Shown here in pieces: positions 124 to 52,676 of a DNA stretch of 64,000 nt (within the stretch, counting starts at the first letter, position 1; every line of letters begins with the position of its first letter). The stretch lies in the IMG/VR virus record IMGVR_UViG_3300027111_000206, positions 6,686-70,685 of that record. The stretch is one strand, 5' to 3'. The notes beneath the pieces are model-generated. The model made no database searches. It was not told where the DNA came from and worked only from the letters and a program-made list of their open reading frames with translations. Source of the stretch: a virus. The translations under genes were made by a program, and so were the position numbers.

Positions 124-1941
124 TTATGCGGCGCGTGCTTGGCGTTGCACGGCGCGCCACGGGTCATTGGCGCGTGCCAGGGCGGCCATCGGTGGCGGGC
201 TGACGCTGTTGCCGCACATGTGGACCTGCTGAGTCTTGGTGAATGGCTTGCCGTCGGCGCCGTGGCTGATGATGTAGTCGGCAGGGAAGCCCTGGGCCTT
301 GTACAGCTCAGATGGCTTCAGCATCCGCAGGCAGATGTCCACGATGACGTAGGGCGTGCCCTTCACCATCACGGTGACCATTGCCAGGCGGTCCTTGGTG
401 GTGATGGTTGGCGCCGGCGCATCGCAGGCGCTGATGTTCTCGGTGCCGTAGTAGCTGATCAGGAAAGCCGCGACTCGCAGTGCTCCATCCTCGTGCTCGG
501 GCGACAGCTTGTACTGCAGCAATGCGTGGTGCTCGGCGCCGGCCGTCATTGTCGGAACGGGTTCGTCCACGCCGCGCCCGACGCAGTTTCGACGTAACGT
601 TGCCAGGCTGGCGCTGACCAACTGCTGCTGGCTGCCGGTGTTGGTCACCGTTGTCAGCGGGTCATCCATGCCCTTGGCAAACGTGGTGTTGAAGCCGCCG
701 TTCATCTGGGCCATGAAGGCGGTGGCAATCGCGCGGTGGTTCTGTGTCATCAGCGTGCCCACCGGCTGATCAATGCCTACCGGCTTGCCTGAGTACTCCG
801 GGCCACCAGCCCCAACCATCAGCGGACTGATCAGTGTCAGCTCACCGCGGTTAGCGCAGGTCACAGTGGGAAGCGGCTCCATCGGATCGTTCACCCGAAC
901 GCTGCCCTGGTGCGTGGCCGGCGCAATCACGGGGCTTGCCACGGCGAACGATCCACCGCGGGGCCAACTGGTGACGGTGCGCAGGGGCTCGTCGACCGAC
1001 TGGACAAGCTCACCGGACCAGTTCGCGATCGGCACAATGAACGGCGCCGGGTTATCGATGACGAACTTCTTCATGCCCTTGGCGACCCGCCGGAGAGTGG
1101 CCGGCGCCAGGTTCTTCTTGCGTCCGAAGATGCTCTTGCCCAGGTCGCTGAAGTCGATGCAGTCAGCGGCGGTATTCCATTTCTGCTGTCCCTTGACTGG
1201 GTTCTTGGCATGGGTGGGCTCAGGCCACACGATCGGCTGGCCGTCGCACCGGGCGATCATGAACAGCCGTTCCCGGCTGGTGGGTGCGCCGAAGTCGCAG
1301 GCTTTGATCACCTTCCACTCGACGACGTAGCCCATGCCTTCCAGCAGGGAGACGAAACGGCGCCAGGTCCGGCCGCGGTGCTTCGGGTCCGGCACCAGGA
1401 ACTGCTGGCCCACCGGCACCACCTCGCCAGGCGCAGCTACCTCTCCGTTGAGCTTCACCACCCGCCCGGTGGCCTTGTCGCGCTTGGCGATCAGCCGGCC
1501 CCATTGCAGGATCTGCTTCACGTTTTCCAGGCTGATCACCCGGGGTCTCTTCTTTCCGCCCCACTTGAGACCGATCCACGACAGGTTCCGAATCTCGCGC
1601 TTGCGCGGCTGGCCGCCGGCGGCCTGGCTGTGGTGCGTGCAGTCTGGCGACATGTGAAACCAGCCCACGGGCCGGCCGCCGCATTCGGTGTCCGGGTCAC
1701 CCTCGAACACGTCGGTGGTGAAGTGCCTGGCGGCAGGGTGGTTGACGGTGTGCATGCTGATCGCGGCAGGGCTGTGGTTCTTCGCTACGGCTACAGCCCG
1801 GCCCAGGCCCATTTCCAGCCCGGTACCGGCGCCGCCGCCACCGCAGAAAAAGTCGACCACGATCTCGTCATCCTGAGGGTTGAAGCCGAGTCCGTATTGG
1901 GTTTTGAAATCGAAGGGGTGTTTCTTCTGTTGTGCGGACAT
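124..1941 (-). CDS. C5 DNA cytosine methyltransferase (phage, long variable region)
   Basis: Motif I DFFCGGGG, motif IV SPDC, motif VI ENV, motif VIII RERLF, C-terminal GNSV. Confidence 0.92.
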   Translation of the reverse strand: MSAQQKKHPFDFKTQYGLGFNPQDDEIVVDFFCGGGGAGTGLEMGLGRAVAVAKNHSPAAISMHTVNHPAARHFTTDVFEGDPDTECGGRPVGWFHMSPDCTHHSQAAGGQPRKREIRNLSWIGLKWGGKKRPRVISLENVKQILQWGRLIAKRDKATGRVVKLNGEVAAPGEVVPVGQQFLVPDPKHRGRTWRRFVSLLEGMGYVVEWKVIKACDFGAPTSRERLFMIARCDGQPIVWPEPTHAKNPVKGQQKWNTAADCIDFSDLGKSIFGRKKNLAPATLRRVAKGMKKFVIDNPAPFIVPIANWSGELVQSVDEPLRTVTSWPRGGSFAVASPVIAPATHQGSVRVNDPMEPLPTVTCANRGELTLISPLMVGAGGPEYSGKPVGIDQPVGTLMTQNHRAIATAFMAQMNGGFNTTFAKGMDDPLTTVTNTGSQQQLVSASLATLRRNCVGRGVDEPVPTMTAGAEHHALLQYKLSPEHEDGALRVAAFLISYYGTENISACDAPAPTITTKDRLAMVTVMVKGTPYVIVDICLRMLKPSELYKAQGFPADYIISHGADGKPFTKTQQVHMCGNSVSPPPMAALARANDPWRAVQRQARAA

Positions 1942-1981: not shown

Positions 1982-3142
1982 TTACTTCTTCGGGTAGGTC
2001 TTGGTCAGGCTGCCGTTGACCGTGTGGCCGCGCTTCAGCACGACCCGGGCCAGTGCCGCGCGATCCTTCTCGCTGTGACTGGCTTGGCTCAGCAGGCCGA
2101 AGTAACTGTTGGCCGTCTCGCGGAGTTCCTCGGCGGGCGCCGCGGCTGTTCGCTTCAGTGCCTGGGCCAATGACCGCTTGCGCGTGGTTCGTCGCCACGG
2201 CTTGATGACGTGCCCGACGAAATCCACGCCCCGGTCAACCGGCTGCAAGATTGTCTTGCTGGGGTTGAGCCTAGCGCCAAGGCTGGGCAGGAACGCCTGC
2301 ACCTGAGCCAGCCAGGCGCTGAGCTGTTGCGGCGACTCATGCAGGAACACGAAGTCATCGACGTAGCGGACATAGTGCTTGGCGCCGAGCCGGTGCTTGG
2401 CGAACTGGTCCAGGGCGTTGAGGTACACGTTGGCGAAGAACTGCGACGACAGGTTGCCGATTGGCAGGCCCAGGCGCGCAGGCTGCGCGGTCAGGCGCTT
2501 GTGCTGTGGCACCCGGTTGAACAGATGGGCCGGGCTGCGCACCTCGTAATCCTCGCGAGGGTCATGCATCAGGATCTGCTCAGCGAGGGCCAGCCACCAG
2601 GGTTCGGTGATCTTGGCGGCCAACTGCCGACGCAGTACCTCTTTGTCGATGGCGACAAAGAAGTTCGCCAGGTCGCATTTCAGGTAGAAAATCGGCTTCG
2701 ACCAGTTCTCGCTGGCGCTGCGTATTTTCGACTCAAGGCGCTTTGCGGCGTACAACGTGCCGCGCCCCGGGATGCACGCGCAACTGTCCGCTATGAAGCT
2801 GGCGTAGAAGCGCGGTGCCACATGGTTGTACAGCAGATGGTGGACGACGCGGTCCCGAAAGGCAGCCGCCCAGACTTCCCGGGCCTTCGGTCGGGTGACC
2901 ACAAAGCAGATGGATCGGCCTGGCCGGTAGGTGCCGGCGATCAGGTCGTTGTGCAGCTCGATCAGGTTGCGTTCCAGGTCCATTTCGAAAGCCAGTGCAC
3001 TGTCGCTGTTGCGCTTGGAGCGTCGGCAGTCGTAATAGGCCTGGACAAGATCGCTGAACGGGTAGGGGCCAACGTTCGAATCTGCGGACGGGGCGGACGC
3101 GGAGCTCGTCGTCCTTGTCGTTGTTGTTCTGATTGCCATCAT
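1982..3142 (-). CDS. DGR reverse transcriptase
   Basis: FRDRVVHH, KCDLANFF, GLPIGNLSSQFFANVYL and YVRYVDDF motifs; no maturase/endonuclease tail; adjacent to TR and Avd; 5' end overlaps TR, start codon uncertain. Confidence 0.95.
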   Translation of the reverse strand: MMAIRTTTTRTTSSASAPSADSNVGPYPFSDLVQAYYDCRRSKRNSDSALAFEMDLERNLIELHNDLIAGTYRPGRSICFVVTRPKAREVWAAAFRDRVVHHLLYNHVAPRFYASFIADSCACIPGRGTLYAAKRLESKIRSASENWSKPIFYLKCDLANFFVAIDKEVLRRQLAAKITEPWWLALAEQILMHDPREDYEVRSPAHLFNRVPQHKRLTAQPARLGLPIGNLSSQFFANVYLNALDQFAKHRLGAKHYVRYVDDFVFLHESPQQLSAWLAQVQAFLPSLGARLNPSKTILQPVDRGVDFVGHVIKPWRRTTRKRSLAQALKRTAAAPAEELRETANSYFGLLSQASHSEKDRAALARVVLKRGHTVNGSLTKTYPKK

Positions 3143-3182
3143 CGAAGTTCATGTTGAATGCGTTGTTGGCGGAGCGCTGCGA
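3081..3182 (-). ncRNA. DGR template repeat (TR), 102 nt
   Basis: Minus strand TCG CAG CGC TCC GCC AAC AAC GCA TTC AAC ATG AAC TTC GAT GAT GGC AAT CAG AAC AAC AAC GAC AAG GAC GAC GAG CTC CGC GTC CGC CCC GTC CGC AGA; 30 adenines; aligns ungapped to three VRs. Confidence 0.97.
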
Positions 3183-3353
3183 CCTATCGTGCTATCTACG
3201 TCGACAAGCCGAAGGCAGCGCCGATCAGCAAGGAAACTGCGCGAGACCTACACGGACGCTTTAGACCGGCGGTATCTCTTGTGCGCATGGCGGTGGCCCG
3301 AAGGCCAGCGGCACGACCAGATTCAATTCGCACAGACCTGAAAGCCGTAACTC

Positions 3354-3710
3354 TCAGGTAGCGGGCGCGGTTGGGGTGGAGCGTTTCCAGGCATTCGCCT
3401 GTTTGCCAATTGAGGTGGTGACCTCGATAGCCTTGGCATGCTGCGGGACGCTGATGAATCGGCTTTCCTTGAACAGCCGCATTAGGAACTCGATGACCTG
3501 GACCTTCTCAACCAGCGAGGTCAGGTGTGGATGTTTGTCCCGGGTCGAGTTGGCCCGGGCAATCAACATCAGCACGTCGATGCACTCATCAATCACCCGC
3601 TTGCCAAGCGACTGCTTCAGGTCGCGGGGAATGTTTCGGGTAAGGTTGGTGGACATATGAAGCAGACCCATGGCTGCGGCATAGATCGAAAGATCGGTGT
3701 GCATTCCCAT
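3354..3710 (-). CDS. avd: DGR accessory variability determinant (Avd-like four-helix bundle)
   Basis: 118 aa, basic, helical, IPRDLKQSLG ... IGKQANAWKR pattern; lies between target gene and TR/RT. Confidence 0.88.
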   Translation of the reverse strand: MGMHTDLSIYAAAMGLLHMSTNLTRNIPRDLKQSLGKRVIDECIDVLMLIARANSTRDKHPHLTSLVEKVQVIEFLMRLFKESRFISVPQHAKAIEVTTSIGKQANAWKRSTPTAPAT

Positions 3711-3735
3711 TGCAGTGTTTCTCCATGAACAGCCA

Positions 3736-3753
3736 CCGGCCGCAAGCGGCCGG
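3736..3753. other. GC hairpin/cruciform downstream of VR1 (DGR target-recognition element candidate)
   Basis: Perfect inverted repeat CCGGCCG-CAAG-CGGCCGG, 29 nt beyond VR1. Confidence 0.7.
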
Positions 3754-3767
3754 ATTAAATAAGCAAA

Positions 3768-4388
3768 TTAATCAATCAACTTACTGCGGACGGGGCGGAC
3801 GCGGAGCTCGTCGTCCTTGCCGTAGCCGTACTGATAGCCATCACCGAAGTGCACGCTGAATGCGCCGTCGGCGGAGCGCTGCGAACTCGACCAGTAGGCG
3901 CGATCCTGGAAGGCTTCAGGGCCGTCTTCCTGGAAGGCCTCGATGCTGGTCTGGGTCGGCGACTCATCGGTGTACAGCAGGCCAACCGGCTCGCTGTTGG
4001 GGTTGTCACCGTTGCGACCGTAAGCCCAGTTCTCTTCGGTCGTTGGCTTGAAGTGACGATACTGCAGCTCTTGCACGTCCCGGGCCGGGATCGCCCAGTC
4101 GGTAAAACCTGCGATGTCCAGGGCCAGAACCTTTTGAGCCAGTTCGCTGCCGGCCGCCGCCATGGCCTCGGTGTTGGCCCGGCTGTCGGTGAAGCTGTCG
4201 GCTCCGTCGATTTTCTCGCCGTACTTGCCCCAGGCACCGACCAGCTCATACTCGGCGCCGGCGGTGATGTTCAGGTAACGCTTGCCGGTGTCCGGGTCAC
4301 GAGTGATGCCGGAGAAGAAACCGCCGCCGAAGGGCTGGCCGATTTCCGGGATGGTCACTGCTGGTGCTGCTTGGGCTGCTGCGGACAT
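3768..4388 (-). CDS. DGR target 1, DUF1566/Lcl-type CLec-fold protein
   Basis: GFTDWAIPARDVQEL and AYWSSS motifs; C-terminal VR; GAGG RBS before ATG 4388. Confidence 0.88.
   Translation of the reverse strand: MSAAAQAAPAVTIPEIGQPFGGGFFSGITRDPDTGKRYLNITAGAEYELVGAWGKYGEKIDGADSFTDSRANTEAMAAAGSELAQKVLALDIAGFTDWAIPARDVQELQYRHFKPTTEENWAYGRNGDNPNSEPVGLLYTDESPTQTSIEAFQEDGPEAFQDRAYWSSSQRSADGAFSVHFGDGYQYGYGKDDELRVRPVRSKLID
3783..3884 (-). repeat. Variable region VR1
   Basis: 14 mismatches to TR in 102 nt, all at TR adenines. Confidence 0.97.
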
Positions 4389-4465
4389 GGTCTTTCCTCT
4401 TTTCGAAGGCAACAAAAAAGGCGCTGCTGCGCCCGATGCCGGATCAAGAACGAATTAATGAATGA

Positions 4466-5059
4466 TTAAATGAAGTATCTGCGGACGGGGCGGACGCGGA
4501 GCTCGTAGTACTTGCCGAAGCTGATCTGACTGCCACCATCGAAGCGCACGCCGAATGCGCTGTCGGCGGAGCGCTGCGAACTCGACCAGTAGGCACCCTC
4601 GGTGATCAAGTCATGCACCCATGCCTGATAGAGCTGGGCCGCCGCTGGAAGGTCGAAGTCGGAGTGCCCGTCAGCGGTGTATGCCCGGCACGCTTCGGCG
4701 GCTGGATGGCCTCCTTCCGCGATCAGGGCGTCGGTGTTGGCCTTACCGTCCCATTTGCTGGTGGCGTCCGACTCTTCGCGGTATCGACCCCATGCGTGCT
4801 CCCCTACATCGCTTGCAGCGAGGATCAGGTAGTGCGCCGGGACATCGCCGCGAGCAGCAACGAATCCGCCGTTGATGCCGCCCTGGCCGGGCCAGTACTC
4901 GCCCAGGGCCGGGGCGGTAACTGGTGCTGTCGATGGGACATTCGCCGCTGGCGGGAGAGAGCTTACGAGCAGGGCAGCGATTGCGATCTCTGCCAGCCTT
5001 GGGCGGGCCACTTTGAAGTGGAAGCCATTGTGTTCCAGTTTCACCATTTCAGCTTTCAT
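4466..5059 (-). CDS. DGR target 2, DUF1566/Lcl-type CLec-fold protein
   Basis: PALGEYWPGQGG, HSDFDLP, LITEGAYWSSS; C-terminal VR; paralog of target 3. Confidence 0.88.
   Translation of the reverse strand: MKAEMVKLEHNGFHFKVARPRLAEIAIAALLVSSLPPAANVPSTAPVTAPALGEYWPGQGGINGGFVAARGDVPAHYLILAASDVGEHAWGRYREESDATSKWDGKANTDALIAEGGHPAAEACRAYTADGHSDFDLPAAAQLYQAWVHDLITEGAYWSSSQRSADSAFGVRFDGGSQISFGKYYELRVRPVRRYFI
4478..4579 (-). repeat. Variable region VR2
   Basis: 16 mismatches to TR: 14 at adenines plus 2 G>T (plus-strand 4507, 4510). Confidence 0.95.
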
Positions 5060-5116
5060 GGGTTTTCCTCAGGATGGCGCCGCCCTCCGTGACCGGATGC
5101 GCAGCGTGGGGTAGGG

Positions 5117-5479
5117 TTACTTCGGAATGTCGATTTCGTCGTCAGGCTCTGGCGGATCGTCGGCGAGCGACTTGCGGCCGGCTGCCTCAATAATGCGTGA
5201 CACCTTTTCGGTAACAATGAAAGGTGTCGTGACACACTTCAGCATACTGGCCTGGGTATCGAAGTCGGCCGCAATCAGGTTCATCAGCAGCCGCTGATGG
5301 ACGTCCTGCTGGTTGTTGATGCCGTGGGCTTTCATGACCTTCTTCAGGTCAGGCTTGAACACCCCGGCCACTTCGATCTGGAACTTCTCGATGCCCAGCG
5401 CGGAGTTCTTCGCCGCTGCCTTCTCGCGCTTTCGCCGCTGCTTCAACGCTTCCGCTGTCGGCTGTTGTTCCTCGGCCAT
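5117..5479 (-). CDS. Hypothetical phage protein
   Basis: ORF with GGAG RBS in the early-left operon. Confidence 0.7.
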   Translation of the reverse strand: MAEEQQPTAEALKQRRKREKAAAKNSALGIEKFQIEVAGVFKPDLKKVMKAHGINNQQDVHQRLLMNLIAADFDTQASMLKCVTTPFIVTEKVSRIIEAAGRKSLADDPPEPDDEIDIPK

Positions 5480-5554
5480 GGCCTGCTCCTTCAATTCCAC
5501 TGGCCGGCAGTGCCAGCCAGGTCTGTCGTTTGCGTTGTTGGGTGCGAAAACGTC

Positions 5555-6016
5555 TCACGCTGCGACCTTCACCTGGTTCCAGGCGCCTACGGCAGCCAGT
5601 AGCGCAGACAATCGCGCCTCGGGTACCGGTGTATCGCCGGGCACCGCCAGCCAACCCATGCCGATCCGGTGATTCGGGTTGCAGTCGGCCTTCACCTCTT
5701 CGTAGAAATGTTCCAGAACGTCAGAAAGCCTTTCCACCAGGTGGACACCGTCCGGCCTGATGTCTATCGACTTGATGTATTGGGCGCCATCTTGGCGAAC
5801 GCAGATGCCGGCGATGTAGATCGTCCAGCGGTGCGCAACATCACAGAGCGCGTCGGAGACTGCTTTCGACAGGATCTGCTTCCCATTCTTCCAGTTGATC
5901 ATCACCTGCAGGCCGCTCGGGTCTATGTTGATGACCGCGGCATGATGGGTGTTGACCAGGGCGCGCATGCTGCGCTCGATCTGGACCCGCCGGTTGCATG
6001 GTTTGCGCTTGCTCAT
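5555..6016 (-). CDS. Hypothetical phage protein
   Basis: 153-aa ORF with ATGA overlap to the upstream gene. Confidence 0.7.
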   Translation of the reverse strand: MSKRKPCNRRVQIERSMRALVNTHHAAVINIDPSGLQVMINWKNGKQILSKAVSDALCDVAHRWTIYIAGICVRQDGAQYIKSIDIRPDGVHLVERLSDVLEHFYEEVKADCNPNHRIGMGWLAVPGDTPVPEARLSALLAAVGAWNQVKVAA

Positions 6017-6255
6017 AACGCCTCCGCCATCTTGCGCAGCGCCCGGCGCTCGGCCAATGTCAGAGGCGCCGGCTTGCGCTTGAGGACCGTTTCAGGGTCT
6101 ATCCGGGTTGAGCGGGCCGGCGGGATAGGATTGCGCGGAGGGCTTCGCAGCTCATCGATTCGCCCGCCTGCCGCCAGGAACTGGGCGATCTGGTCGGAAA
6201 GGGCGTTTGCCTGTGGCCGGTTGTGCTCGACCAGGCTGAGGTGGTTGCTGATCAT
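6013..6255 (-). CDS. Hypothetical phage protein (MISNHLSLVEHNR...)
   Basis: Coupled overlaps with both neighbours. Confidence 0.65.
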   Translation of the reverse strand: MISNHLSLVEHNRPQANALSDQIAQFLAAGGRIDELRSPPRNPIPPARSTRIDPETVLKRKPAPLTLAERRALRKMAEAL

Positions 6256-6869
6256 GCTGCTATCCCCAATACCTTGTTCATGCGCTCGTCGAGGATTTCG
6301 TAAAAGGTTTTCACCCGCTCGGCGAGTTTGCGAATCATCACTTCGTCCCGATAGGCGCGCTTGATGAACAGAGGCATGCCAGGCCAGTAGCAGACGAAGT
6401 CGATCCACTCGCGGTCTGAAACCCAGAGGCCGCCTTGGCACTGCGCTACGTGTTCCTTTGGAACCTCGCCGGAGAGGATGACCTCCACCTGGAACTTCGG
6501 TAGCTTTGTTTTGATTTCGCAGAGGCCGTCAGTCCCGATCAACGAGTCAGGCGAGTAGCCAATCCCATGATTGAGGATGATGCCCACCTGATGCGTGGTC
6601 ACGTCCGCCTGCGCCTGGTACAGGCCGCGGGCAGTGCCTTCGTACTCATGGCCGCGCTCTGTGTGGCGATTGCCCTGGAAGGGGTCGGCAGCTTCGCCCG
6701 TGATGCGCTCGCCGATAAGGGTGTTCATGTAGGTGAACGCTCCAGCGCCGAACCCGGCTTCGCCTTTCCCGTTGACCAGCAGGCAATCCAGCTCCGAGCA
6801 AGTAACGATGCCCAGGCGCAGGTTCAGCCACTCTTGAGTCCCTTGCTCTACGTCACTGATGATTTGCAT
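6252..6869 (-). CDS. YqaJ/lambda-Exo-family 5'-3' exonuclease
   Basis: QGTQEWLNLRLG, GHEYE, YSPDSL..GLCEIKT, QCQGGLWV motifs. Confidence 0.9.
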   Translation of the reverse strand: MQIISDVEQGTQEWLNLRLGIVTCSELDCLLVNGKGEAGFGAGAFTYMNTLIGERITGEAADPFQGNRHTERGHEYEGTARGLYQAQADVTTHQVGIILNHGIGYSPDSLIGTDGLCEIKTKLPKFQVEVILSGEVPKEHVAQCQGGLWVSDREWIDFVCYWPGMPLFIKRAYRDEVMIRKLAERVKTFYEILDERMNKVLGIAA

Positions 6870-7611
6870 TGTCTGCCTCCGCTTTCGCTGCAGATTTGGT
6901 GAGCTGTCCGAGCACCTTGTCGAACTCCGCCTTGCTGACGTCTGACGTGGCGCCATGGAGACTGGCGAACGCCTCTTTTGCCTTGTCACTGCATTTGTCC
7001 AGCAGCGCCTGGAGCTGTCGAGCCTGGACAGGCGTTACCAGTTGTTCAGATGGCTCTACATACCCGTCATTGTCGTTGTCGTCGCCGCTGGTGATGTTCA
7101 GCAAAGCGCACATCACATACCGCTTTCCGTAGGTTGTGGTCGAACCAACCGACTGAACAGCACTGCGCCCGGCGCCGGTATCAAGGGGCAGGATCATTGT
7201 TGTTTCTTCGCGGTGACCGGCCTTGTGCATCAGGATGCCGGTGATGCTCACACCGTTGGCCTGGTTCACAATCTTGAAGGACACGCCAAAGCCGAACTTG
7301 GCCATGACCGGGCGAACCGCATAGTTGATGTCGTCCAGGTCGGCGTACATCTTCTTGGTGTGCGTGTTTTCGGTGCGCTTCTCTACAGAAGGCATTTCGC
7401 ACTGCATTTCAGCGAATGCTGCGTTGAATGCTTCGAGCGCGCTTTTGGCCTCCATACGGTCTTGAAGCTTGATCAGGCGTTCCAGCTTGTCCATGTCGCA
7501 GCGTGGGTCGAGAGCAAGCCGGCTGATCGTTGCCAGCATGCTGATCTCTTGCGGCGGATTGGCGAGCATTTGGCTTTCCCGATCTGGCGGCATGATGATT
7601 TCGGTAGACAT
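6853..7611 (-). CDS. erf: ERF-family single-strand annealing recombinase
   Basis: YADLDDI..AVRPVMAKFGF, QSVGSTTTYGKRY, DDNDND pattern; paired with Exo. Confidence 0.88.
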   Translation of the reverse strand: MSTEIIMPPDRESQMLANPPQEISMLATISRLALDPRCDMDKLERLIKLQDRMEAKSALEAFNAAFAEMQCEMPSVEKRTENTHTKKMYADLDDINYAVRPVMAKFGFGVSFKIVNQANGVSITGILMHKAGHREETTMILPLDTGAGRSAVQSVGSTTTYGKRYVMCALLNITSGDDNDNDGYVEPSEQLVTPVQARQLQALLDKCSDKAKEAFASLHGATSDVSKAEFDKVLGQLTKSAAKAEADNANHQ

Positions 7612-7618
7612 GGCGACC

Positions 7619-8719
7619 TCAGTAGCAAATTGAAATGGCTGGAATCTTGCGCTGGGCGATCAGGGTGATTGCCTGCTTCGCGCATTCCTCGGTCATGCCG
7701 CCAGCGATGAAGGCTTCCAGGGCGGCGCGGTTGATCTTGGCTTTGTGTGCCTTGTCAGCCTCGCGCAGCCGCTCCTGGCGCAGGATTTCGTCCGCTGCGG
7801 CTTTCTGGCGGGCAATCTCATCGAGGCGCGCCTTTTCGACGGCCTGCTTCTGATCTTCGATTGCTTGAAGGCGGTCGCGCTCGGCTTTCTGGTCCGCCTC
7901 GATCTTCTCCCGCCTGGCCAGTTCTGCTTGGCGCTCGGCTTCGGCGGCGGCCAGCTTCAGGTCGTTCTCCCGCTTCTCCGCGGCTGCCTGCTCGTCTCGT
8001 GCCCGCTGCGCAGCCGCATCACGCTCACGCTGAGCCTTTTCCTCTGCTTCACGGGTAGCGCGTTCGGCGGCTTCACGGGCGATTCGATCCTCGCGCTCCT
8101 TCTTCTCGCGAGCCTCGTCTTCGGCGCGACGCCGAGCCAGTTCGGCCTGGTCAGCTTCGAAGGCCTCACGCTTGGCGAGCCCGGCGCGCAGTACGGCTAG
8201 GACCTTGTCCTTCGCCCGGGCGGCTTCGGCTTCGAATTCTTCCCAGTGGGCGCCAATCTCAACCGCTTCAGCCTCCGTAATGCGCTGCTTGATCTGCTCC
8301 GACGTCAGCTCCGCGAGCATGTCGTCGCGATTCTTCAGCCAGTCGATGCCGTCGTTATGCTTGTCGACCCGGGCGTCTTCGGCTGCCTGCCACTCGTTCA
8401 GCGGCCGACGCACCTCTTCCTGCCAAGCTTCCAGGGTGTCCCGGACGCGCTTGCGCTCGGCGTCGATCTTCTTTGGCACTTCCTTCAGGTCGGCGACGAG
8501 CTTCTTCCCGACGTCGTCCAGAGCGGTCTTGGAGCGGGCGACCTTGTAGGCCATCGAGGCGATTGCATCACGACCTTTGCGGGTGCTGATGTCCGGCGTG
8601 AAGCCGTCGATCTCGGTGCGGATCTTCTGAAGCCATGGCTCCAGGCCGTTCGGCGCGCTGTAGACGGCCAGGGCGGTTTCTGCGGGCGGCACTACAGCCA
8701 GTTCGGTTTTTGCGGACAC
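7619..8719 (-). CDS. Coiled-coil phage protein preceding the recombination genes
   Basis: 366 aa, GTG start, long A/E/R/K-rich helical region. Confidence 0.75.
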   Translation of the reverse strand: MSAKTELAVVPPAETALAVYSAPNGLEPWLQKIRTEIDGFTPDISTRKGRDAIASMAYKVARSKTALDDVGKKLVADLKEVPKKIDAERKRVRDTLEAWQEEVRRPLNEWQAAEDARVDKHNDGIDWLKNRDDMLAELTSEQIKQRITEAEAVEIGAHWEEFEAEAARAKDKVLAVLRAGLAKREAFEADQAELARRRAEDEAREKKEREDRIAREAAERATREAEEKAQRERDAAAQRARDEQAAAEKRENDLKLAAAEAERQAELARREKIEADQKAERDRLQAIEDQKQAVEKARLDEIARQKAAADEILRQERLREADKAHKAKINRAALEAFIAGGMTEECAKQAITLIAQRKIPAISICY

Positions 8720-8763
8720 GAGCGAATCCTTGCCGCGACGTGCGCAGCGCTTGAAGGTGTGAG

Positions 8764-8880
8764 TTAGGAGGTAATGCGATCGGCGTAGGCGCTTGCGAGC
8801 ATCCAGGCCGTGCAGAGAAGAAGGACGATTGCTGATCCGCGCCAGGTGTAGATCCTGCGCAGGCGTTGGATTTTTGTCAT
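8764..8880 (-). CDS. 38-aa membrane peptide (MTKIQRLRRIYTWRGSAIVLLLCTAWMLASAYADRITS)
   Basis: GGAG RBS, one hydrophobic segment, overlap-coupled; below ORF-track cutoff. Confidence 0.55.
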   Translation of the reverse strand: MTKIQRLRRIYTWRGSAIVLLLCTAWMLASAYADRITS

Positions 8881-9053
8881 CGCGATGTCTCCAGGCTGAG
8901 CAGCCTTTCGCCCAGCGTTATGCGGGCGGCAACTTTGTCACGGTCAACGCCTGTGATACTGGCGATGCCGCCGAGACTGAGCCCCTGGCGTCGAAGTCTT
9001 GCGCAGCGTTTGGCGAGGGCCTGCTGGCGTTTCTTGGCACCTTCGCCGCTCAT
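8877..9053 (-). CDS. Small HTH-like protein (MSGEGAKKRQQ...)
   Basis: GLSLGGIASITGVDRDKVAARI resembles a helix-turn-helix; ATGA coupling. Confidence 0.55.
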   Translation of the reverse strand: MSGEGAKKRQQALAKRCARLRRQGLSLGGIASITGVDRDKVAARITLGERLLSLETSR

Positions 9054-9169
9054 CGCAGCACCTGGGAGAGCTGAGGCACCTGACAAGCAACATGGTGATC
9101 CCTGACCACTGTGTAGGCCAGCATGGTCATGAGGAGGCCGGCGGTGATGATCCATATGAGGGCTTTCAT
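9050..9169 (-). CDS. 39-aa membrane peptide (MKALIWIITAGLLMTMLAYTVV...)
   Basis: Hydrophobic N-terminus; ATGA coupling on both sides. Confidence 0.55.
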   Translation of the reverse strand: MKALIWIITAGLLMTMLAYTVVRDHHVACQVPQLSQVLR

Positions 9170-9336
9170 GGCCGAGCCCTCACTTCAACCCGGCCAGCTT
9201 TGATAGCTGCTACCAGCTTCGGCGGCAGTGCTGCCACAGGAAGTTCGCGCGGCAAGCCAGCACCGAGGATGGTCAGGCTCCGCTCGATCTCGGCGATCTG
9301 CTCATCGATCAGCGACTTATGGATTGGCGTGGTCAT
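9166..9336 (-). CDS. Hypothetical protein (MTTPIHKSLIDEQ...)
   Basis: GGAG RBS; coupled ORF. Confidence 0.55.
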   Translation of the reverse strand: MTTPIHKSLIDEQIAEIERSLTILGAGLPRELPVAALPPKLVAAIKAGRVEVRARP

Positions 9337-9571
9337 GGCTGCTCCTTGCGCTCGTCCTGATGCGGTCCAGCGCGTATTGGCTTTGAATTTCGTAGATGCG
9401 GTCCAAGCGGGCCCGGTAAGAGCCGTATTCGGCAAGGTCGATAACGCCCAGCGAGTGGGCCATTTCAATTGCCATGGACGCTTCCGTGTGAACAGTTGCC
9501 GACGTGTCGCCAGCGTTCAGCAGGTCGAACCGGGCATCAATCATCCCGGTCGCAATGTCGTGCTTGTTCAT
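9317..9571 (-). CDS. Hypothetical protein (MNKHDIATGMIDARF...)
   Basis: Coupled ORF in the early-left operon. Confidence 0.6.
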   Translation of the reverse strand: MNKHDIATGMIDARFDLLNAGDTSATVHTEASMAIEMAHSLGVIDLAEYGSYRARLDRIYEIQSQYALDRIRTSARSSHDHANP

Positions 9572-9852
9572 GCGACCCACCGTTGTCGGCGACTCTGCGC
9601 GTCGATCTCGACCCACAGCGCTGTCTCAATCTGCTGGCCGTAGTGCGAGGCGATAGCCTCAAGGGACTGCTCAACATTCATCCGCACGCCGTCATCGTCG
9701 TAGCAGATGGCCGATTCGATTTTGAATTCCAGTTCACGGGACCCGTAGAAGTCCCAGTCACTGTTCCAGGAGTTGAAGCAAGGAGGGATGTTCTCGCAAT
9801 GGGTCACCTCCACCTGGAGGACGAACCCTTCAACAATCACTTCGTAAGTCAT
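9568..9852 (-). CDS. Hypothetical acidic protein (MTYEVIVEGFVLQVEV...)
   Basis: GGAGG RBS; coupled ORF. Confidence 0.65.
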   Translation of the reverse strand: MTYEVIVEGFVLQVEVTHCENIPPCFNSWNSDWDFYGSRELEFKIESAICYDDDGVRMNVEQSLEAIASHYGQQIETALWVEIDAQSRRQRWVA

Positions 9853-9871
9853 GGTCGCCTCCAGGGTGGCG

Positions 9872-10072
9872 TTATTCGATGGGCGGGGCGGGGAGCGGCT
9901 GCCAGTGGGTAGGTTCGTCGCAGTCGTAAAACTCCTGATCGACCCAGTGCGGCGCCGTTTCAAGGTCTGAATCGATCTGCCCGATTCGTAAGTCGCCAAA
10001 ACTTCCACCCCACATCAGCACTAGCTGACCCTCTTCAGGAGATCGGTTGGCGGTTTTGATCCAATCGCTCAT
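9872..10072 (-). CDS. DUF551-like phage protein
   Basis: MSDWIK...P N-terminus and PTHWQPLPAPP C-terminus. Confidence 0.8.
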   Translation of the reverse strand: MSDWIKTANRSPEEGQLVLMWGGSFGDLRIGQIDSDLETAPHWVDQEFYDCDEPTHWQPLPAPPIE

Positions 10073-10093
10073 GGCGACCTCCAGTGTTTGGGG

Positions 10094-10381
10094 TTAGGCG
10101 GCTTCGGCTTTCGGCTCGTCCTTGTCGTACTTCTCGCCGCAGAACATGCAGTAGCTGCCGAGCATCGACATATCCTGTTTCTTGCGCTGGAACCCGCCGC
10201 CTTTCTTCTTAGGCACTTCGTACTCGATGTGCAGGTTGAGCTTGTTCTTCATGCTCACGGTGCCGCCCAGGAGCCAGGCGAACCCTTGCAGTTCCGCGGA
10301 GAAGTCACGGGAGCCTTCTGGCAGCTTGGCGCGAATCTTTTCCTTTGCTGCCGATTCAACTTCGGTTGCGCAGTTACACAT
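10094..10381 (-). CDS. Hypothetical Cys-pair protein (MCNC...YCMFCGEKY)
   Basis: GAGG RBS; CxC and CxxC motifs. Confidence 0.7.
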   Translation of the reverse strand: MCNCATEVESAAKEKIRAKLPEGSRDFSAELQGFAWLLGGTVSMKNKLNLHIEYEVPKKKGGGFQRKKQDMSMLGSYCMFCGEKYDKDEPKAEAA

Positions 10382-10557
10382 GGTTGTTTCCTCTGTGGGT
10401 TCACCTGTACTCGTCAACACTCATCCCTCCCGCTGGTTGCCGATGGGCGCGGGGGAGAGTGCTGACGGGTAGAGGCGATAAGAAAAGACCCAACTGGACA
10501 GGAGGGCCTTTTCGATGCGGTGGTGTTGCTCACGGTCGAGGGTTGGGGGCGGGACCA

Positions 10558-10701
10558 TCAGCGCCAGAACGCCTGGGCCCCGCTGGTACATCGCCAGCGC
10601 TTGCGGTGAATCCGCAATGGACCGGTTGGCAGGCCGTCATCAGGTGGCGGTTCTGGCCGCGCATGGCTGAGCGCTGCGCCGATCAGGAAGATTTGGAGCA
10701 T
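10558..10701 (-). CDS. 47-aa hypothetical peptide (MLQIFLIGAALSHARPEPP...)
   Basis: GGAG RBS; followed by a hairpin at ~10484-10513. Confidence 0.4.
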   Translation of the reverse strand: MLQIFLIGAALSHARPEPPPDDGLPTGPLRIHRKRWRCTSGAQAFWR

Positions 10702-10816
10702 GCGATTCTCCAGCTTGAGGGTTGCAGGTGGCCGGCACTGCCCGGCACGTATCAGGCCTGGCCGCTCGTACCTGAGCAGCCCCGCGATTCACCTGCGATT
10801 AAAAGCAATAAATGAA

Positions 10817-11398
10817 TCAATGAATTGGCAATCTGCGGACGGGGCGGACGCGGAGCTCGTCGTCCTTGCCGCTGATGACCTGATAGCCAACATCGAAGTA
10901 CATGGAGAACGCGCCGTTGGCGGAGCGCTGCGAACTCGACCAGTAGGCGCCCTCGGTGATCAGGTCCGGCACGTACTGCCACACCTGGTTGAGTTCGCCG
11001 ATGGAAGGAAGGCCGAAGTCGTGATGACCGTCAGCGGTGTAGTTGGCTGCTGCCTCGGCGGCCGGGAATGAACCACCAGCTTCCAGCAGGGTAGTGGTGT
11101 TCAGGATGCCGTGGGTTCGGCTCGTGGCGCCGGTCTCGGCTCCAAATTCGCCCCAGGCGAACTTGCCGAGGTCTTCAGCACCCACGATCAAGTGGTGAGG
11201 TCCGTCAGGGTAGTGGCGGATCCCTACATAAACACCGCCTTGGCCGGGCCAGTATTCGCCGATGGCCGGAACCGAAGAAGCGGCCGGCGCCGCATCGACT
11301 GTCATTGCCAGTGTCGCCAGCTTCAGTACAACAGCTTCGTCAGGGCTGCTGATCGTCAAGCCAAGACGGGAGTAGGTAGTCAGTTGATTTGCTTGCAT
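10817..11398 (-). CDS. DGR target 3 (remote), DUF1566/Lcl-type CLec-fold protein
   Basis: PAIGEYWPGQGG, HHDFGLPSIGEL, LITEGAYWSSS; C-terminal VR. Confidence 0.88.
   Translation of the reverse strand: MQANQLTTYSRLGLTISSPDEAVVLKLATLAMTVDAAPAASSVPAIGEYWPGQGGVYVGIRHYPDGPHHLIVGAEDLGKFAWGEFGAETGATSRTHGILNTTTLLEAGGSFPAAEAAANYTADGHHDFGLPSIGELNQVWQYVPDLITEGAYWSSSQRSANGAFSMYFDVGYQVISGKDDELRVRPVRRLPIH
10832..10933 (-). repeat. Variable region VR3
   Basis: 13 mismatches to TR in 102 nt, all at TR adenines. Confidence 0.97.
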
Positions 11399-13751: not shown

Positions 13752-14085
13752 GCTTCCATTGCCTCAGCTTATAGGTTGCTATCTGACCGAAATGTCCACA
13801 ATTAGGGCAGATCACCGCAGTAGATGTATGCAAATTTCCACAGAGTGATTCAGTTCTGAAGATTTGGAGGCAGGGATTGTCAGTTTCTCCTTGCTCCTGA
13901 TCATTGTCGGCAGCATCCTGCATCGCGATCTCCCAGCCTCCTTTCCAATCACAGTGAGGGCATTTAGTGCTCCGCTTGCGATCAGTCAAGAACTGAATTA
14001 GATCGTTAACTCGAAGTGGCGGAGCGGATCCATCTTCGTGGAGCGGCAACCCGCCCACGTTGTCAATTCGTCTCATGCCAGCCAT
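13726..14085 (-). CDS. Zn-ribbon hypothetical protein (cI-linked accessory gene)
   Basis: CPHC ... CPNCG motifs; directly downstream of cI. Confidence 0.65.
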   Translation of the reverse strand: MAGMRRIDNVGGLPLHEDGSAPPLRVNDLIQFLTDRKRSTKCPHCDWKGGWEIAMQDAADNDQEQGETDNPCLQIFRTESLCGNLHTSTAVICPNCGHFGQIATYKLRQWKLAKETGDE

Positions 14086-14099
14086 TTCAGCCCTCAGCG

Positions 14100-14981
14100 T
14101 TAAACAAGGTTAGCATTCCACACTAGCAGCACCCGCGCCTGGATGTAGGTGTCCTCGGCTCGGATCGTTCGTGCGGGATGCAGAGCGTTATCCGAAATCA
14201 TGCTCAACTGGTCATCGCCCAGCCACTGGAGCCGCTTGATGTACAGGTGGCCGTCCCAGGAAAACATGTAGATCCCATCGCCAACGAACTCGCGGATGCT
14301 GATGTCGACCAGCAGAGGATCCCGGTGCTTGATAGTCGGCGCCATGGACTGGCCCCAGCCTGTCACCATCTTGAGGTGGAAGTGCTCTTTGAACTCGACG
14401 CCCATCTCGCGCAAATGCTGGGGGCTGACTCTGATGTCCTGGAGCATTTCAGGGTAGTCGTGCGGGATCTGCCCACCGCCCATGGCGGCGCGGATGTCGT
14501 AGTGCGCAATCCATACCTCATCCCCCGCAGCGCCGGGGCGGTAGTAGTCCAACTCAATCGCACCGCCGCCATCCTCAGCCTGCGCCACGGCCAGCAATCG
14601 CCTACGAGCATCCTCGGAAAGGTTTTTCCCGCTTCGACTCAGCATTTCTCGGACGACGTCGGCCGCCGTGCCGCCGACTGAGTAGCTGGCGCCGTTCTCC
14701 CGCACAACCGGCGCGCTTGTCATCCTGCGAATCTCTTCAGCCAGGCGCGGACTGAAAGCCTCTACCGGCTCTTGAATAAGTCGGGCCAAAACCGCTGCGA
14801 ACTGAGCGTTCAAGGGGTTGATCCCTTTGAAGTAGAGATTTACCGCAGCGGGTGTCATGCCGGCCGCATCGGCGATCTTCTTCTGGCTCAGCTTCAGCTC
14901 GTTCTTCTTTGAGAGGAACAGCGCGTGCGCGGCTTCGCACTCGGCCAGGCGGTCAGGAGGCAGGATTCGTTTTTTCGTCAT
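14100..14981 (-). CDS. cI: CI-like repressor (HTH + S24 autopeptidase)
   Basis: LSQKKIADAAGMTPAAVNLYFKG HTH; GQSMAPTI (Ser) and YIKRL (Lys); start MTKKR at 14981. Confidence 0.93.
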   Translation of the reverse strand: MTKKRILPPDRLAECEAAHALFLSKKNELKLSQKKIADAAGMTPAAVNLYFKGINPLNAQFAAVLARLIQEPVEAFSPRLAEEIRRMTSAPVVRENGASYSVGGTAADVVREMLSRSGKNLSEDARRRLLAVAQAEDGGGAIELDYYRPGAAGDEVWIAHYDIRAAMGGGQIPHDYPEMLQDIRVSPQHLREMGVEFKEHFHLKMVTGWGQSMAPTIKHRDPLLVDISIREFVGDGIYMFSWDGHLYIKRLQWLGDDQLSMISDNALHPARTIRAEDTYIQARVLLVWNANLV

Positions 14982-14986
14982 CGCGC

Positions 14987-15057
14987 GAATGTATACCAAC
15001 GGTTAAAAATAAGAAGAAACCATCGGTATTGATTAAAAATTAACAGATGGTTAATAT
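14987..15057. promoter_or_regulatory. OR region: three operators, pR and pRM
   Basis: Operators 14993-15006, 15016-29 and 15041-54 match OL; pR TTGATT-17-TAATAT; pRM -10 TACATT 6 nt before the cI ATG. Confidence 0.82.
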
Positions 15058-15085: not shown

Positions 15086-15280
15086 ATGAACGAGACCCCC
15101 CTCGACAAGTTTGTTGCTGAAAAAGGGCAGTCCGAAGCCGCACGGCTTCTTCGTGTCACCGCCCCGGCAATTCACAAAGCGCTCATCGCGAAACGGGACA
15201 TCCGCGTCTTGGAACTGCCTGACGGCACGTTCAAGGCCCAGGAGCAGCGTCCGTTCCCGTCCCAGAAATCAGCTGCATAA
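15086..15280 (+). CDS. cro: Cro repressor
   Basis: GQSEAARLLRVTAPAIHKAL ... EQRPFPSQK closely parallels lambda Cro. Confidence 0.9.
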   Translation: MNETPLDKFVAEKGQSEAARLLRVTAPAIHKALIAKRDIRVLELPDGTFKAQEQRPFPSQKSAA

Positions 15281-15310
15281 CCCTTCCAATCACACAGGAG
15301 CAAACCCCGT

Positions 15311-46964: not shown

Positions 46965-48152
46965 ATGCCCTGGTATAAAACTGGGACGGTTGCCGTCACC
47001 CTGAATTCCAATGCGGTGACAGGCACTGGCACTTCATTCATCGCGAATTGCCGGGTCGGCGATGCGTTCCGTGGGCCTGATGGCCGGTGGTATGAGGTGA
47101 CCAACGCGCCGAGCGATACATCGCTCTCCATCGACCCGCCGTATCAGGGGGCGACAGCTTCCGGCGGCAGTTATGCGCTGGCGCCAATGCAGGGCTATCC
47201 AAAGGACCTGGCGGATCAGGTAAGGGCCATAAATAACGTTTGGGGCACGAAGTTGGCCGCGCTGGGGACAACCGGCAACTACGACACCCTGCCTGTCTCC
47301 AAGGGCGGTACCGGTGGCACCGACCAAGCGACGGCACGCACCGGCCTGGGCCTTGGGTCTGCCGCGACGGCAACGGTGCAAACGAGCTCCACGGATGTCA
47401 CCGCCGGCCGGCTTCTGGCGGTGGGTGCATTTGGCTGGAACGGCGGGACCTGTATCGCCTTGCCGGTGACCGACGTGAACACGATCACTGTTGCGGCGGA
47501 ATACGCTCTGGGCGCCGGCGGCACCAACCTGCCGAATAACTCCCAGGCCTGGTACTTGCGTGTCGTGCGGCACACGACGCTTGTCCTCCAGGAAGTTCGG
47601 GGGATGACTACGGTCAACGCCGGCCAGGTTTGGACGCGCGCCTACACCGGCTCAGCGTGGGAGGCTTGGTCGCCACGGGCGGCCGGCGGCGCTAACTCGG
47701 ACATCACCAGCCTCACGGGGCTGACTACGGCGCTCAGCGTTTCCCAGGGTGGCACGGGCGGCAAAAACGCCGCGGCCGCACGTACCGGCCTCGGGCTTGG
47801 TTCCGCTGCGACGGCCAACGTCGGCACTGCCGCAGGCAACGTAATGGCGGTTGGCGCGGGCGGCTGGCTGGGGCCCTCAACGATCGACAACAGCAACGCG
47901 AACAACGCGAAGACCACAGGCCTGTACAGCTTGAGCAACGCGACCAACGCGCCCTATACCGCCGTGCAGTTGCTGTCATCCGATTGGGGCGGCGATGCGC
48001 GCTGGCAATCACAGCTCGCGCTCGGTATCTCGCAGAACAAAGCCTATTTCCGCTCGATCATGAAGGATCAATCCGCCGCCACCACATGGGCGGAGTTCTA
48101 TCACACCGGCAATACCACCCGTGCCGCCGACGGCACCCTGAAGGCGATTTGA
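46965..48152 (+). CDS. Tail fibre protein
   Basis: MPWYKTGTV N-terminus; two LxVSxGGTGG..A..ARTGLGLGSAATA repeats. Confidence 0.85.
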   Translation: MPWYKTGTVAVTLNSNAVTGTGTSFIANCRVGDAFRGPDGRWYEVTNAPSDTSLSIDPPYQGATASGGSYALAPMQGYPKDLADQVRAINNVWGTKLAALGTTGNYDTLPVSKGGTGGTDQATARTGLGLGSAATATVQTSSTDVTAGRLLAVGAFGWNGGTCIALPVTDVNTITVAAEYALGAGGTNLPNNSQAWYLRVVRHTTLVLQEVRGMTTVNAGQVWTRAYTGSAWEAWSPRAAGGANSDITSLTGLTTALSVSQGGTGGKNAAAARTGLGLGSAATANVGTAAGNVMAVGAGGWLGPSTIDNSNANNAKTTGLYSLSNATNAPYTAVQLLSSDWGGDARWQSQLALGISQNKAYFRSIMKDQSAATTWAEFYHTGNTTRAADGTLKAI

Positions 48153-51867: not shown

Positions 51868-51941
51868 AATGAATGCAAAGGCTGCATATTTATGCGAAAC
51901 AGCATTTGTTTTCTGCAAAAAGAACAAGCACTATGCGCGTT

Positions 51942-52676
51942 ATGCAAAAACGCAACGTTTCGACCGTATTAAGAGCACTGCTCGACCAGCACGGGATCTC
52001 CCCCACGGAGCTTCACCGGCGTACTGGCGTGCCCCAGTCCACCCTCTCGCGGATCCTCAGCGGCAAGATCGTCGATCCTTCGGATAAACACATCTCGAAG
52101 ATCGCCGAGTACTTCTCCGTGAGCACCGACCAGTTGCGCGGGCGCGCGGATGTGGCCGCTGCCGGCGGCAGTCGTCGCGACGAGTCCCATGCCGAGCTCA
52201 AGGACATAAGCCTGTGGGACGACGAGACCCCCGTCGAGGAAGACGAGGTGTCGGTCCCTTTTCTGCGTGAGGTTGAATTGGCTGCTGGATCAGGAAGATT
52301 CGTCATCGAAGAGAGCGAGCGCTCAAGCCTGCGCTTCGGCAAGCGCAGCCTGCGCCATAACGGCGTGCAGTTCGACCAGGCCAAATGCGTGACGGTACGC
52401 GGCAACAGCATGTTGCCGGTGCTGCGCGACGGCGCCACGGTCGGGGTGAATGTGGCTCGGTGCAGCATCGGCGACATCGTCGACGGCGACCTCTACGCCA
52501 TCAATCACAATGGCCAACTGCGGGTCAAACAGCTTTATCGACTGCCCACCGGTATCCGCTTGCGCAGCTTCAATCGCGATGAACATCCGGATGAGGACTA
52601 CAGCTTCCAGGACATGCAGGAAGAGCAGATCGTCATCCTTGGCCATGTCTTCTGGTGGGGCATGTACGCCCGCTAA
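51942..52676 (+). CDS. prtR: PrtR-like repressor (HTH + S24 peptidase)
   Basis: ISPTELHRRTGVPQSTLSRIL HTH; ELAAGSG; GNSMLP; RVKQL. Confidence 0.88.
   Translation: MQKRNVSTVLRALLDQHGISPTELHRRTGVPQSTLSRILSGKIVDPSDKHISKIAEYFSVSTDQLRGRADVAAAGGSRRDESHAELKDISLWDDETPVEEDEVSVPFLREVELAAGSGRFVIEESERSSLRFGKRSLRHNGVQFDQAKCVTVRGNSMLPVLRDGATVGVNVARCSIGDIVDGDLYAINHNGQLRVKQLYRLPTGIRLRSFNRDEHPDEDYSFQDMQEEQIVILGHVFWWGMYAR

Follow-up and report, generated by a model that had tools for sequence, protein, structure and literature searches.

The 64,000-nucleotide stretch analyzed here (the window) comprises bases 6686-70685 of the 74.9-kb IMG/VR provirus record IMGVR_UViG_3300027111_000206, a dormant (prophage) virus of Pseudomonas. 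The window contains a complete and intact diversity-generating retroelement (DGR), which lies, together with its target genes, on the minus strand. The DGR reverse transcriptase (RT; 1982-3142, 386 aa) matches Pfam RVT_1 with 61 bits, and its sequence reads YVDD and IGNLSSQ where RTs of the DGR clade have YxDD and motif 4 ([ILV]GxxxSQ). The start of the RT gene overlaps the 3' part of the template repeat (TR; 3081-3182), an AAC-rich sequence that encodes SQRSANNAFNMNFDDGNQNNND..., has 30 adenines in its 102-nt core and aligns without gaps to three variable repeats (VRs). Directly 5' of the TR, exactly between it and avd, lies the RT-15 structured RNA (3180-3370), a full-length match to Rfam RF03018 with 177 bits against a gathering score of 82. 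RT-15 is an orphan RT-associated RNA motif that is probably the DGR RNA scaffold of this clade, and the annotation of phage Cruim01 also includes it. The accessory variability determinant, bAvd (3354-3710, 118 aa), matches Pfam PF22296 with 48.5 bits (cut-off 40).

Template and variable repeats

The three VRs lie at 3783-3884 (VR1), 4478-4579 (VR2) and 10832-10933 (VR3). An original prediction, made from the sequence alone, had described one TR and these three VRs, and we reproduced the gapless alignment for each. VR1 differs from the TR at 14 positions and VR3 at 13, all of which are TR adenines (hypergeometric P 2e-9 and 1e-8, respectively). VR2 has 16 mismatches, 14 of them at TR adenines (hypergeometric P 2e-7). 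The counts of 14, 14 and 13 adenine substitutions given by the prediction were thus correct, but it had omitted two further G>T changes in VR2; summed over the three VRs, 41 of the 43 mismatches are at TR adenines. The G>T pair (4505-4510) is three bases apart and reads TAC TAC where the TR reads GAC GAC, which may be a remnant of an earlier or foreign state of the TR.

The TR and all three VRs share an identical 26-nt GC-rich block at their 3' ends (chance expectation 0 matches), and no difference between initiation of mutagenic homing sequences (IMH and IMH*) is visible within it. TR-like copies beyond the TR and the three VRs are absent from the whole 74.9-kb provirus. Since the provirus holds only these four copies, the tail fiber (46965-48152; phrog_2712 / PHROG tail fiber families) and gpJ are not targets, as had been stated. 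GC-rich hairpins with no equivalent at the TR follow all three VRs at a distance of 30-50 nt on the 3' side (z-score not significant). About 30 nt 3' of VR1 is a GC-rich 7-bp hairpin (3736-3753), a candidate for DGR target recognition. The hairpin after VR2 (4419-4434) is followed by a T-run and may be terminator-like or a DGR hairpin, and an 8-bp hairpin lies about 50 nt 3' of VR3 (10760-10781).

Target proteins

Each VR takes up roughly the final 34-38 codons of a small open reading frame (ORF), and the lengths of the three products fall within the 190-210 aa that had been proposed. T1 (3768-4388, 206 aa, VR1) consists of the C-type lectin (CLec)/DUF1566 domain alone. Its start is most likely the ATG at 4388, which gives 206 aa, rather than the TTG at 4415. 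In T2 (4466-5059, 197 aa, VR2), a beta-hairpin and helix (residues 1-33) and a Pro/Ala linker precede the CLec domain, and T3 (10817-11398, 193 aa, VR3) is a remote T2 paralog with another N-terminal module. T1 has essentially no N-terminal extension, while T2 and T3 have differing modules of about 35 aa. Matches of T1, T2 and T3 to Pfam Lcl_C/DUF1566 (PF07603) score 33.8, 19.6 and 25.2 bits, all under the gathering threshold of 34.9 bits. All three also match PHROG 4245, to which no function is assigned there, at E ~1e-30. Their kinship with Lcl_C/DUF1566, despite the sub-threshold Pfam scores, is supported by this match and by a structural match to the Legionella Lcl domain.

The AlphaFold2 model of T2, built on 64 homologs, has a mean pLDDT of 76. 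It consists of a beta-hairpin (5-18), a helix (19-33), a disordered Pro/Ala linker and a confident globular part (51-197); the VR part is poorly modeled. Because a Foldseek search of the model against the PDB gave nothing at E <= 0.001 (the best match was Lcl, E 0.48), we used a wide, exhaustive VIA comparison with solved folds. C-type-lectin-like domains (CTLDs) dominated its matches. At the top were the Bacteroides fimbrial protein 4eps (Z 7.8), the Legionella Lcl C-terminal domain 8q4e (Z 7.6, rmsd 4.5, 107 aligned) and Bd2740 (Z 6.0). Animal CTLDs and the DGR targets Mtd, TaqVP and TvpA (the latter at Z 3.4-3.6) ranked lower. This model supports the CLec fold that had been anticipated for the targets, with the VRs predicted to sit at its C-terminus.

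A homodimer of T2 was predicted with an ipSAE of 0.75, compared with 0.01 for the best control; 21 of 30 solved homodimers and none of 23 monomers reach the ipSAE mark for homodimers. The predicted interface involves residues 66-68, 102-103, 140-148, 163, 169 and 175-180 of the CLec body and is partly formed by the VR. This supports self-association of T2 but does not show it. An oligomerization role for the N-terminal module was not supported, as the predicted interface avoids residues 1-33. We also rejected the idea that the N-terminal modules of T2 and T3 are degenerate ribbon-helix-helix (RHH) domains: neither T2 1-55 nor T3 1-50 has a Pfam match at E <= 1, and the model has a beta-hairpin with a single helix.

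Signals for export were assessed heuristically throughout. No lipobox, Tat motif or transmembrane (TM)-grade hydrophobic segment was found in T1-T3, in agreement with the claim that the targets lack a signal peptide, and the lipobox and Tat motif are absent from all 123 family proteins. The maximum KD19 hydropathy of T1-T3 is 1.0-1.5, and a value of 1.6 is reached by 10 of the 123 family proteins. Cysteine is absent from T1 and T3 and occurs once in T2. The T2 helix 19-33 is hydrophobic, yet it is far from the N-terminus and amphipathic in homologs, and we therefore did not read it as a Sec signal. Pfam searches found no DNA-binding or effector domain in T1-T3. We considered whether tail genes share a docking N-terminus or CLec domain with the targets and rejected this, as tblastn with the N-termini and the full targets against the window found only T1-T3 and the TR.

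Genomic setting

The DGR cassette lies between a cI-type repressor and an integrase, in the same orientation as both. Leftward from the cI-type (S24) repressor (14100-14999, minus strand; phrog_4, phrog_6201), which heads the arm, the order is small ORFs, T3, small ORFs, phrog_1376, Erf, exonuclease, small ORFs, T2 and T1. These are followed by avd, RT-15/TR, RT, a C-5 cytosine DNA methylase downstream of the RT (124-1941, minus strand) and, beyond further genes, int. The exonuclease and Erf recombination genes (6252-7611, minus strand; phrog_149, phrog_155) are situated between T3 and the cassette. The location among Exo/Erf, methylase and small ORFs on the repressor-to-integrase strand, as originally described, is thus confirmed by the gene order. 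T3 is remote (7.7 kb away), and all target genes are 36-43 kb from the tail fiber, in the cI-to-int arm. An operator-like motif is common to 13890-13955 and 15230-15295 (cI/cro intergenic; repeats D5 and I4), and a terminator-like hairpin follows the first leftward ORF. The arm is a lambda-type early-left arm, as originally described, with a putative promoter.

Related loci and cultured phages

One genome per GTDB species was scanned with the RT, and the best 80 of 128 RT-related stretches were kept. RT identity in these 80 loci is 60-96% (71-96% in Pseudomonas and 60-70% in mostly Betaproteobacteria). Adenine-specific VRs, one to three in number, accompany a TR beside the RT in 73 of the 80 loci. 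Automated ORF calling gave 156 targets of 47-320 aa (median ~197), none of which was a long fiber-like protein. Two targets were counted in each of 51 loci and three in 16; usually two targets adjoin each other, and in the 16 loci a third is found, often 2.5-8 kb upstream.

Gene placement in the 80 loci was scored by BLAST markers only. A co-oriented repressor was found upstream at 38 loci and a co-oriented integrase downstream at 35, with at least one of the two at 56, while structural genes were found within 10 kb at a single locus. The placement from repressor to integrase is a trait of the whole RT clade, in lambdoid prophages of Pseudomonas and Betaproteobacteria. The layout is the same in the cultured phages Cruim01 (P. 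syringae) and Haboob (P. aeruginosa). Over RT-TR-avd-T1, Cruim01 is 79% identical to the window at the DNA level, and it has three targets, the remote one near the repressor. Phages PAN70 and FBPa42 encode a homologous small protein in the same early-left arm without any RT. The window DGR is an ordinary member of this widespread clade. One Janthinobacterium sp. contig (L021), an unexpected host genus, encodes an RT that is 90% identical to the window RT; our scans detected neither a TR/VR pair nor avd there.

Activity and expression

Variation among related loci is concentrated where a working DGR would place it. Four orthologs, 84-91% identical to T3, show 17-31 differences, of which 8-18 fall within the last 40 residues; in two of these orthologs that is more than half. 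Across six related loci, the TR diverges by 2-6%, compared with 8-18% for RT and avd, and 79-95% of the VR differences are at TR-A positions. Compared with window 3081-3182, the TR of the related loci L015-L028 is far more conserved than RT, avd and the target scaffolds (8-36%). This comparative pattern fits continuing TR homogenization and adenine mutagenesis, and on this evidence the DGR appears to be evolutionarily active.

Among the listed Logan contigs of the source root metagenome, VR2 is spanned, and contigs stop at the cores of VR1 (3813-3872) and VR3 (10859-10921). These stops could reflect population heterogeneity or repeat-induced graph breaks. No A-specific variants were found among the listed contigs, which are assembled sequences that do not span the VR1 and VR3 cores. 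Contigs from soil RNA libraries (metatranscriptomes), from relatives of ~93% identity, cover RT, avd with T1, and T3.

The homolog family and Arc fusions

A search with T3 found 1047 homologs, nearly all of them Pseudomonas proteins, of 157-320 aa. The family combines a conserved CLec domain and a Pro/Ala linker with interchangeable N-terminal modules: none, several beta-strand/helix types, a helical segment of ~90 aa, a second CLec domain, or Arc. CLec core residues are invariant in 64 homologs. In the close homologs P0052, P0062 and P0102 (L012 10001-10684; L096 985-1698; L097 246-959), CLec is fused to an Arc RHH domain (PF03869, 36-38 bits against a cut-off of 20.4). The Arc/MetJ RHH domain was found only in these three homologs and not in the window targets. 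In every case the fusion lies a few genes downstream of cI, in the context TerB - DUF3927 - [Arc-CLec] - ... - Metallophos. The CLec bodies of P0052 and P0062 are identical, and their VRs differ at ~10 residues, which is the DGR signature. A DNA-binding fusion fits poorly with a location in the virion or at the surface.

The same early-left arms of other loci also contain stand-alone Arc-like genes (L010 7549-7779, PAN70_038; L040 3532-3816; L043 12557-12877). The one in PAN70 directly follows the DUF1566 gene, a neighbor/fusion relationship. A profile search of 1.84 billion representatives recovered 22,168 relatives, 310 of them at E <= 1e-30. The top 150 are mostly small single-domain proteins, together with giant multi-repeat proteins. 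PA5oct-like jumbo phages have a CLec homolog of ~160 aa among small hypothetical genes, apparently without a DGR, for example MIJ3_00367 of phage vB_PaeM_MIJ3 (L095 3920-4411).

Comparison with known DGRs

To our knowledge, DGRs are the sole natural machines for targeted protein hypermutation in prokaryotes, and phage DGRs are, as far as we know, understood solely as tropism switches on virion receptor-binding proteins. The best-known system, the BPP-1 DGR (mtd-avd-TR-brt), shares with the window element an RT with YVDD and IGxxxSQ, Avd, one TR and adenine-specific mutagenesis, as well as a C-terminal VR on a CLec fold, a GC-rich 3' block in TR and VR, and, as a candidate, a hairpin 3' of the VR. 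By analogy, an RT-Avd complex would copy TR RNA with errors at adenines, and the cDNA would replace the last ~100 nt of three genes. If the BPP-1 model holds, these targets would be recognized through the common GC-rich 3' block and probably the downstream hairpin. The structured RNA of the window (RT-15) is 5' of the TR, whereas BPP-1 has a 3' spacer, and the hairpins follow the VRs at 30-50 nt rather than about 4 nt. The targets differ as well. BPP-1 diversifies one 381-aa trimeric virion tropism protein, whereas the window has three stand-alone CLec proteins of 193-206 aa in an early arm and, by gene position, does not encode a target with the tail genes as expected of an Mtd-type receptor-binding protein.

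Targets of this size have been catalogued before. Wu et al. 2018 (PMC5758913) have a category 'd' (the CLec2 VR class), exemplified by Legionella LdtA, in which short DUF1566-only proteins make up about half; their survey also describes remote targets within the same prophage. The window targets resemble this category in their Lcl_C/DUF1566-type VR domain. LdtA is an exported surface lipoprotein, whereas the window targets lack a signal, lipobox or Tat motif. The cassette of Burkholderia phage Magia has also been annotated, in an announcement that notes VRs in fairly short ORFs and suggests adaptation or altered host range only (PMC7883833). Magia and the Pseudomonas phages Cruim01 and Haboob have the gene order and small targets of the window, with no difference in kind. 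The 'new system' of the original prediction was thus an overstatement.

The targets of Cruim01 and Haboob are annotated 'hypothetical protein', and the Cruim01 paper does not mention the DGR element. Large surveys report that viral DGR targets are mostly tail proteins or unknown (PMC8144416). The survey of Wu et al. 2018 (PMC5758913) does not discuss early-operon placement or an intracellular role, and our literature search found no paper that describes phage DGR targets as placed in an early operon, fused to Arc or active inside the cell. CLec domains that work inside the cell do have a bacterial precedent: DGR-diversified cytoplasmic sensors are reported in multicellular bacteria and cyanobacteria (PMC10907252; PMC7517822). 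The DGRs concerned are cellular, and their targets are large multidomain signaling or conflict proteins with effector domains, whereas the element considered here is viral and its targets are bare binding domains or, in relatives, Arc fusions.

Possible roles of the targets

We suggest that the products of the three genes are small, soluble, signal-less proteins of the CLec fold, whose diversified C-terminal face would be a ligand-binding surface. Their genes would belong to a repressor-controlled leftward operon (cI to int), and the proteins would act inside the cell upon infection or induction, as a small set of binding modules that can evolve. Our best guess for the ligands would be variable host proteins (defense or takeover targets) or rival-phage proteins; VRs would therefore be selected after DNA entry and not at adsorption. 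Because of the placement in a repressor-controlled operon and the Arc-fused relatives, work inside the cell is the most likely reading of T1-T3. We regard it as an even call on its own and as fairly probable if the variant in which the targets serve the lysogen as sensors is included. The notion of intracellular binders in the original prediction is in part supported, as the inside-cell idea is backed by the clade placement, the early-left non-DGR homologs in PAN70 and FBPa42 and the Arc fusions with DGR-patterned VRs; a specific anti-defense or sensor role is speculation. We put forward only tentatively, as a possibility we doubt, the fuller version of a phage repertoire of intracellular 'intrabody-like' binders, in which VRs would be selected after entry to neutralize or sense defense or rival-phage proteins and Arc versions would wire recognition to transcription.

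Several observations weigh against an intracellular role. PADLOC (anti-phage defense HMMs) gave no matches for T1-T3 and seven neighboring ORFs. The pL-type promoter is assigned from the operator-like repeats only and is thus putative, and a consensus promoter scan found fewer sites than in shuffled sequences. The soil RNA contigs are a hint of transcription rather than proof and could represent DNA carry-over. No RT was found near the Arc-CLec fusions within the flanks available, and no Arc domain occurs in the 156 targets of RT-bearing loci, so that the Arc argument extends to T1-T3 through family membership. Lastly, the missing signal peptide does not exclude incorporation into virions, since virion proteins also have none; Mtd is itself a signal-less CLec protein.

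This last point leads to an extracellular role, in which the small CLec proteins would be virion-docked accessory adhesins (fiber tips or capsid decoration) or glycan/receptor binders released at lysis. In that case the DGR would adjust tropism, as that of BPP-1 does, and the cassette would be a mobile module in a non-essential int-proximal region. All phage DGR targets characterized by experiment (Mtd) are receptor-binding proteins of the virion (PMC5758913; PMC8144416), the nearest solved folds of T2 are surface adhesin domains (the Bacteroides fimbrial tip 4eps and Legionella Lcl), and the predicted T2 homodimer would provide the multivalency typical of adhesins. However, the targets have no homology or common N-terminus with the window tail genes, and only one of the 80 loci has structural genes nearby. 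The target genes instead share the orientation of the recombination and regulatory early genes among which they lie, non-DGR homologs in other phages are likewise early-left, and the Arc fusions of the family are hard to square with a virion role. We consider an extracellular role rather unlikely. A smaller chance is given to targets that the prophage expresses as moron-like sensors or regulators, benefiting the lysogen by recognizing incoming phage or foreign proteins, with the Arc-fused versions coupling recognition to transcription (exclusion, abortive infection or induction). Such a role could account for the Arc-CLec fusions, for the stand-alone Arc-like genes in the same arms (one of them beside the PAN70 DUF1566 gene) and for the closeness of both T3 and the Arc fusions to cI, only a few genes downstream of it. 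It has a bacterial precedent in the reported DGR-diversified cytoplasmic sensors (PMC10907252), and RNA-library contigs of relatives are deeper over T3 than over the cassette, a weak indication. Yet T1-T3 themselves have no DNA-binding or effector domain, and the operator-like motif and terminator-like site would put T3 under a pL-like promoter and not on the cI transcript.

It is very improbable that the cassette is selfish or decaying, with a DGR that rewrites its cognate VRs in proteins without a current phage function. Orphan targets without an RT do exist (L012), and VR2 has its two non-A mismatches. Nevertheless, every reading frame is intact, the CLec core residues are invariant over 64 homologs, and the TR is very strongly conserved. 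The architecture of two adjacent targets, often with a distant third, is also kept across genera whose RTs are 60-96% identical.

If the intracellular reading of T1-T3 is true, a clade that diversifies bare early-operon binders would extend DGR biology to intracellular events, which could include host takeover, counter-defense, inter-phage conflict and regulation. An intrabody-like repertoire would then amount to an adaptive counter-defense or sensing system on the viral side, and the family would be a source of compact (~150-aa), naturally evolvable scaffolds for cytoplasmic binders. The cultured members Cruim01, Haboob and Magia make the question of an intracellular role directly testable.

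Prophage boundaries

The tyrosine integrase and an intact mutS gene lie just left of the window. The mutS gene (L007 1-3596) encodes 866 aa and abuts the phage integrase. From this arrangement, the prophage sits at the 5' end of mutS, leaving the gene undamaged on the integrase side. A second HTH/S24 repressor, PrtR-like (51873-52676, plus strand), is located just outside the prophage at the start of a high-GC host region and is possibly a tailocin regulator of the mutS locus.

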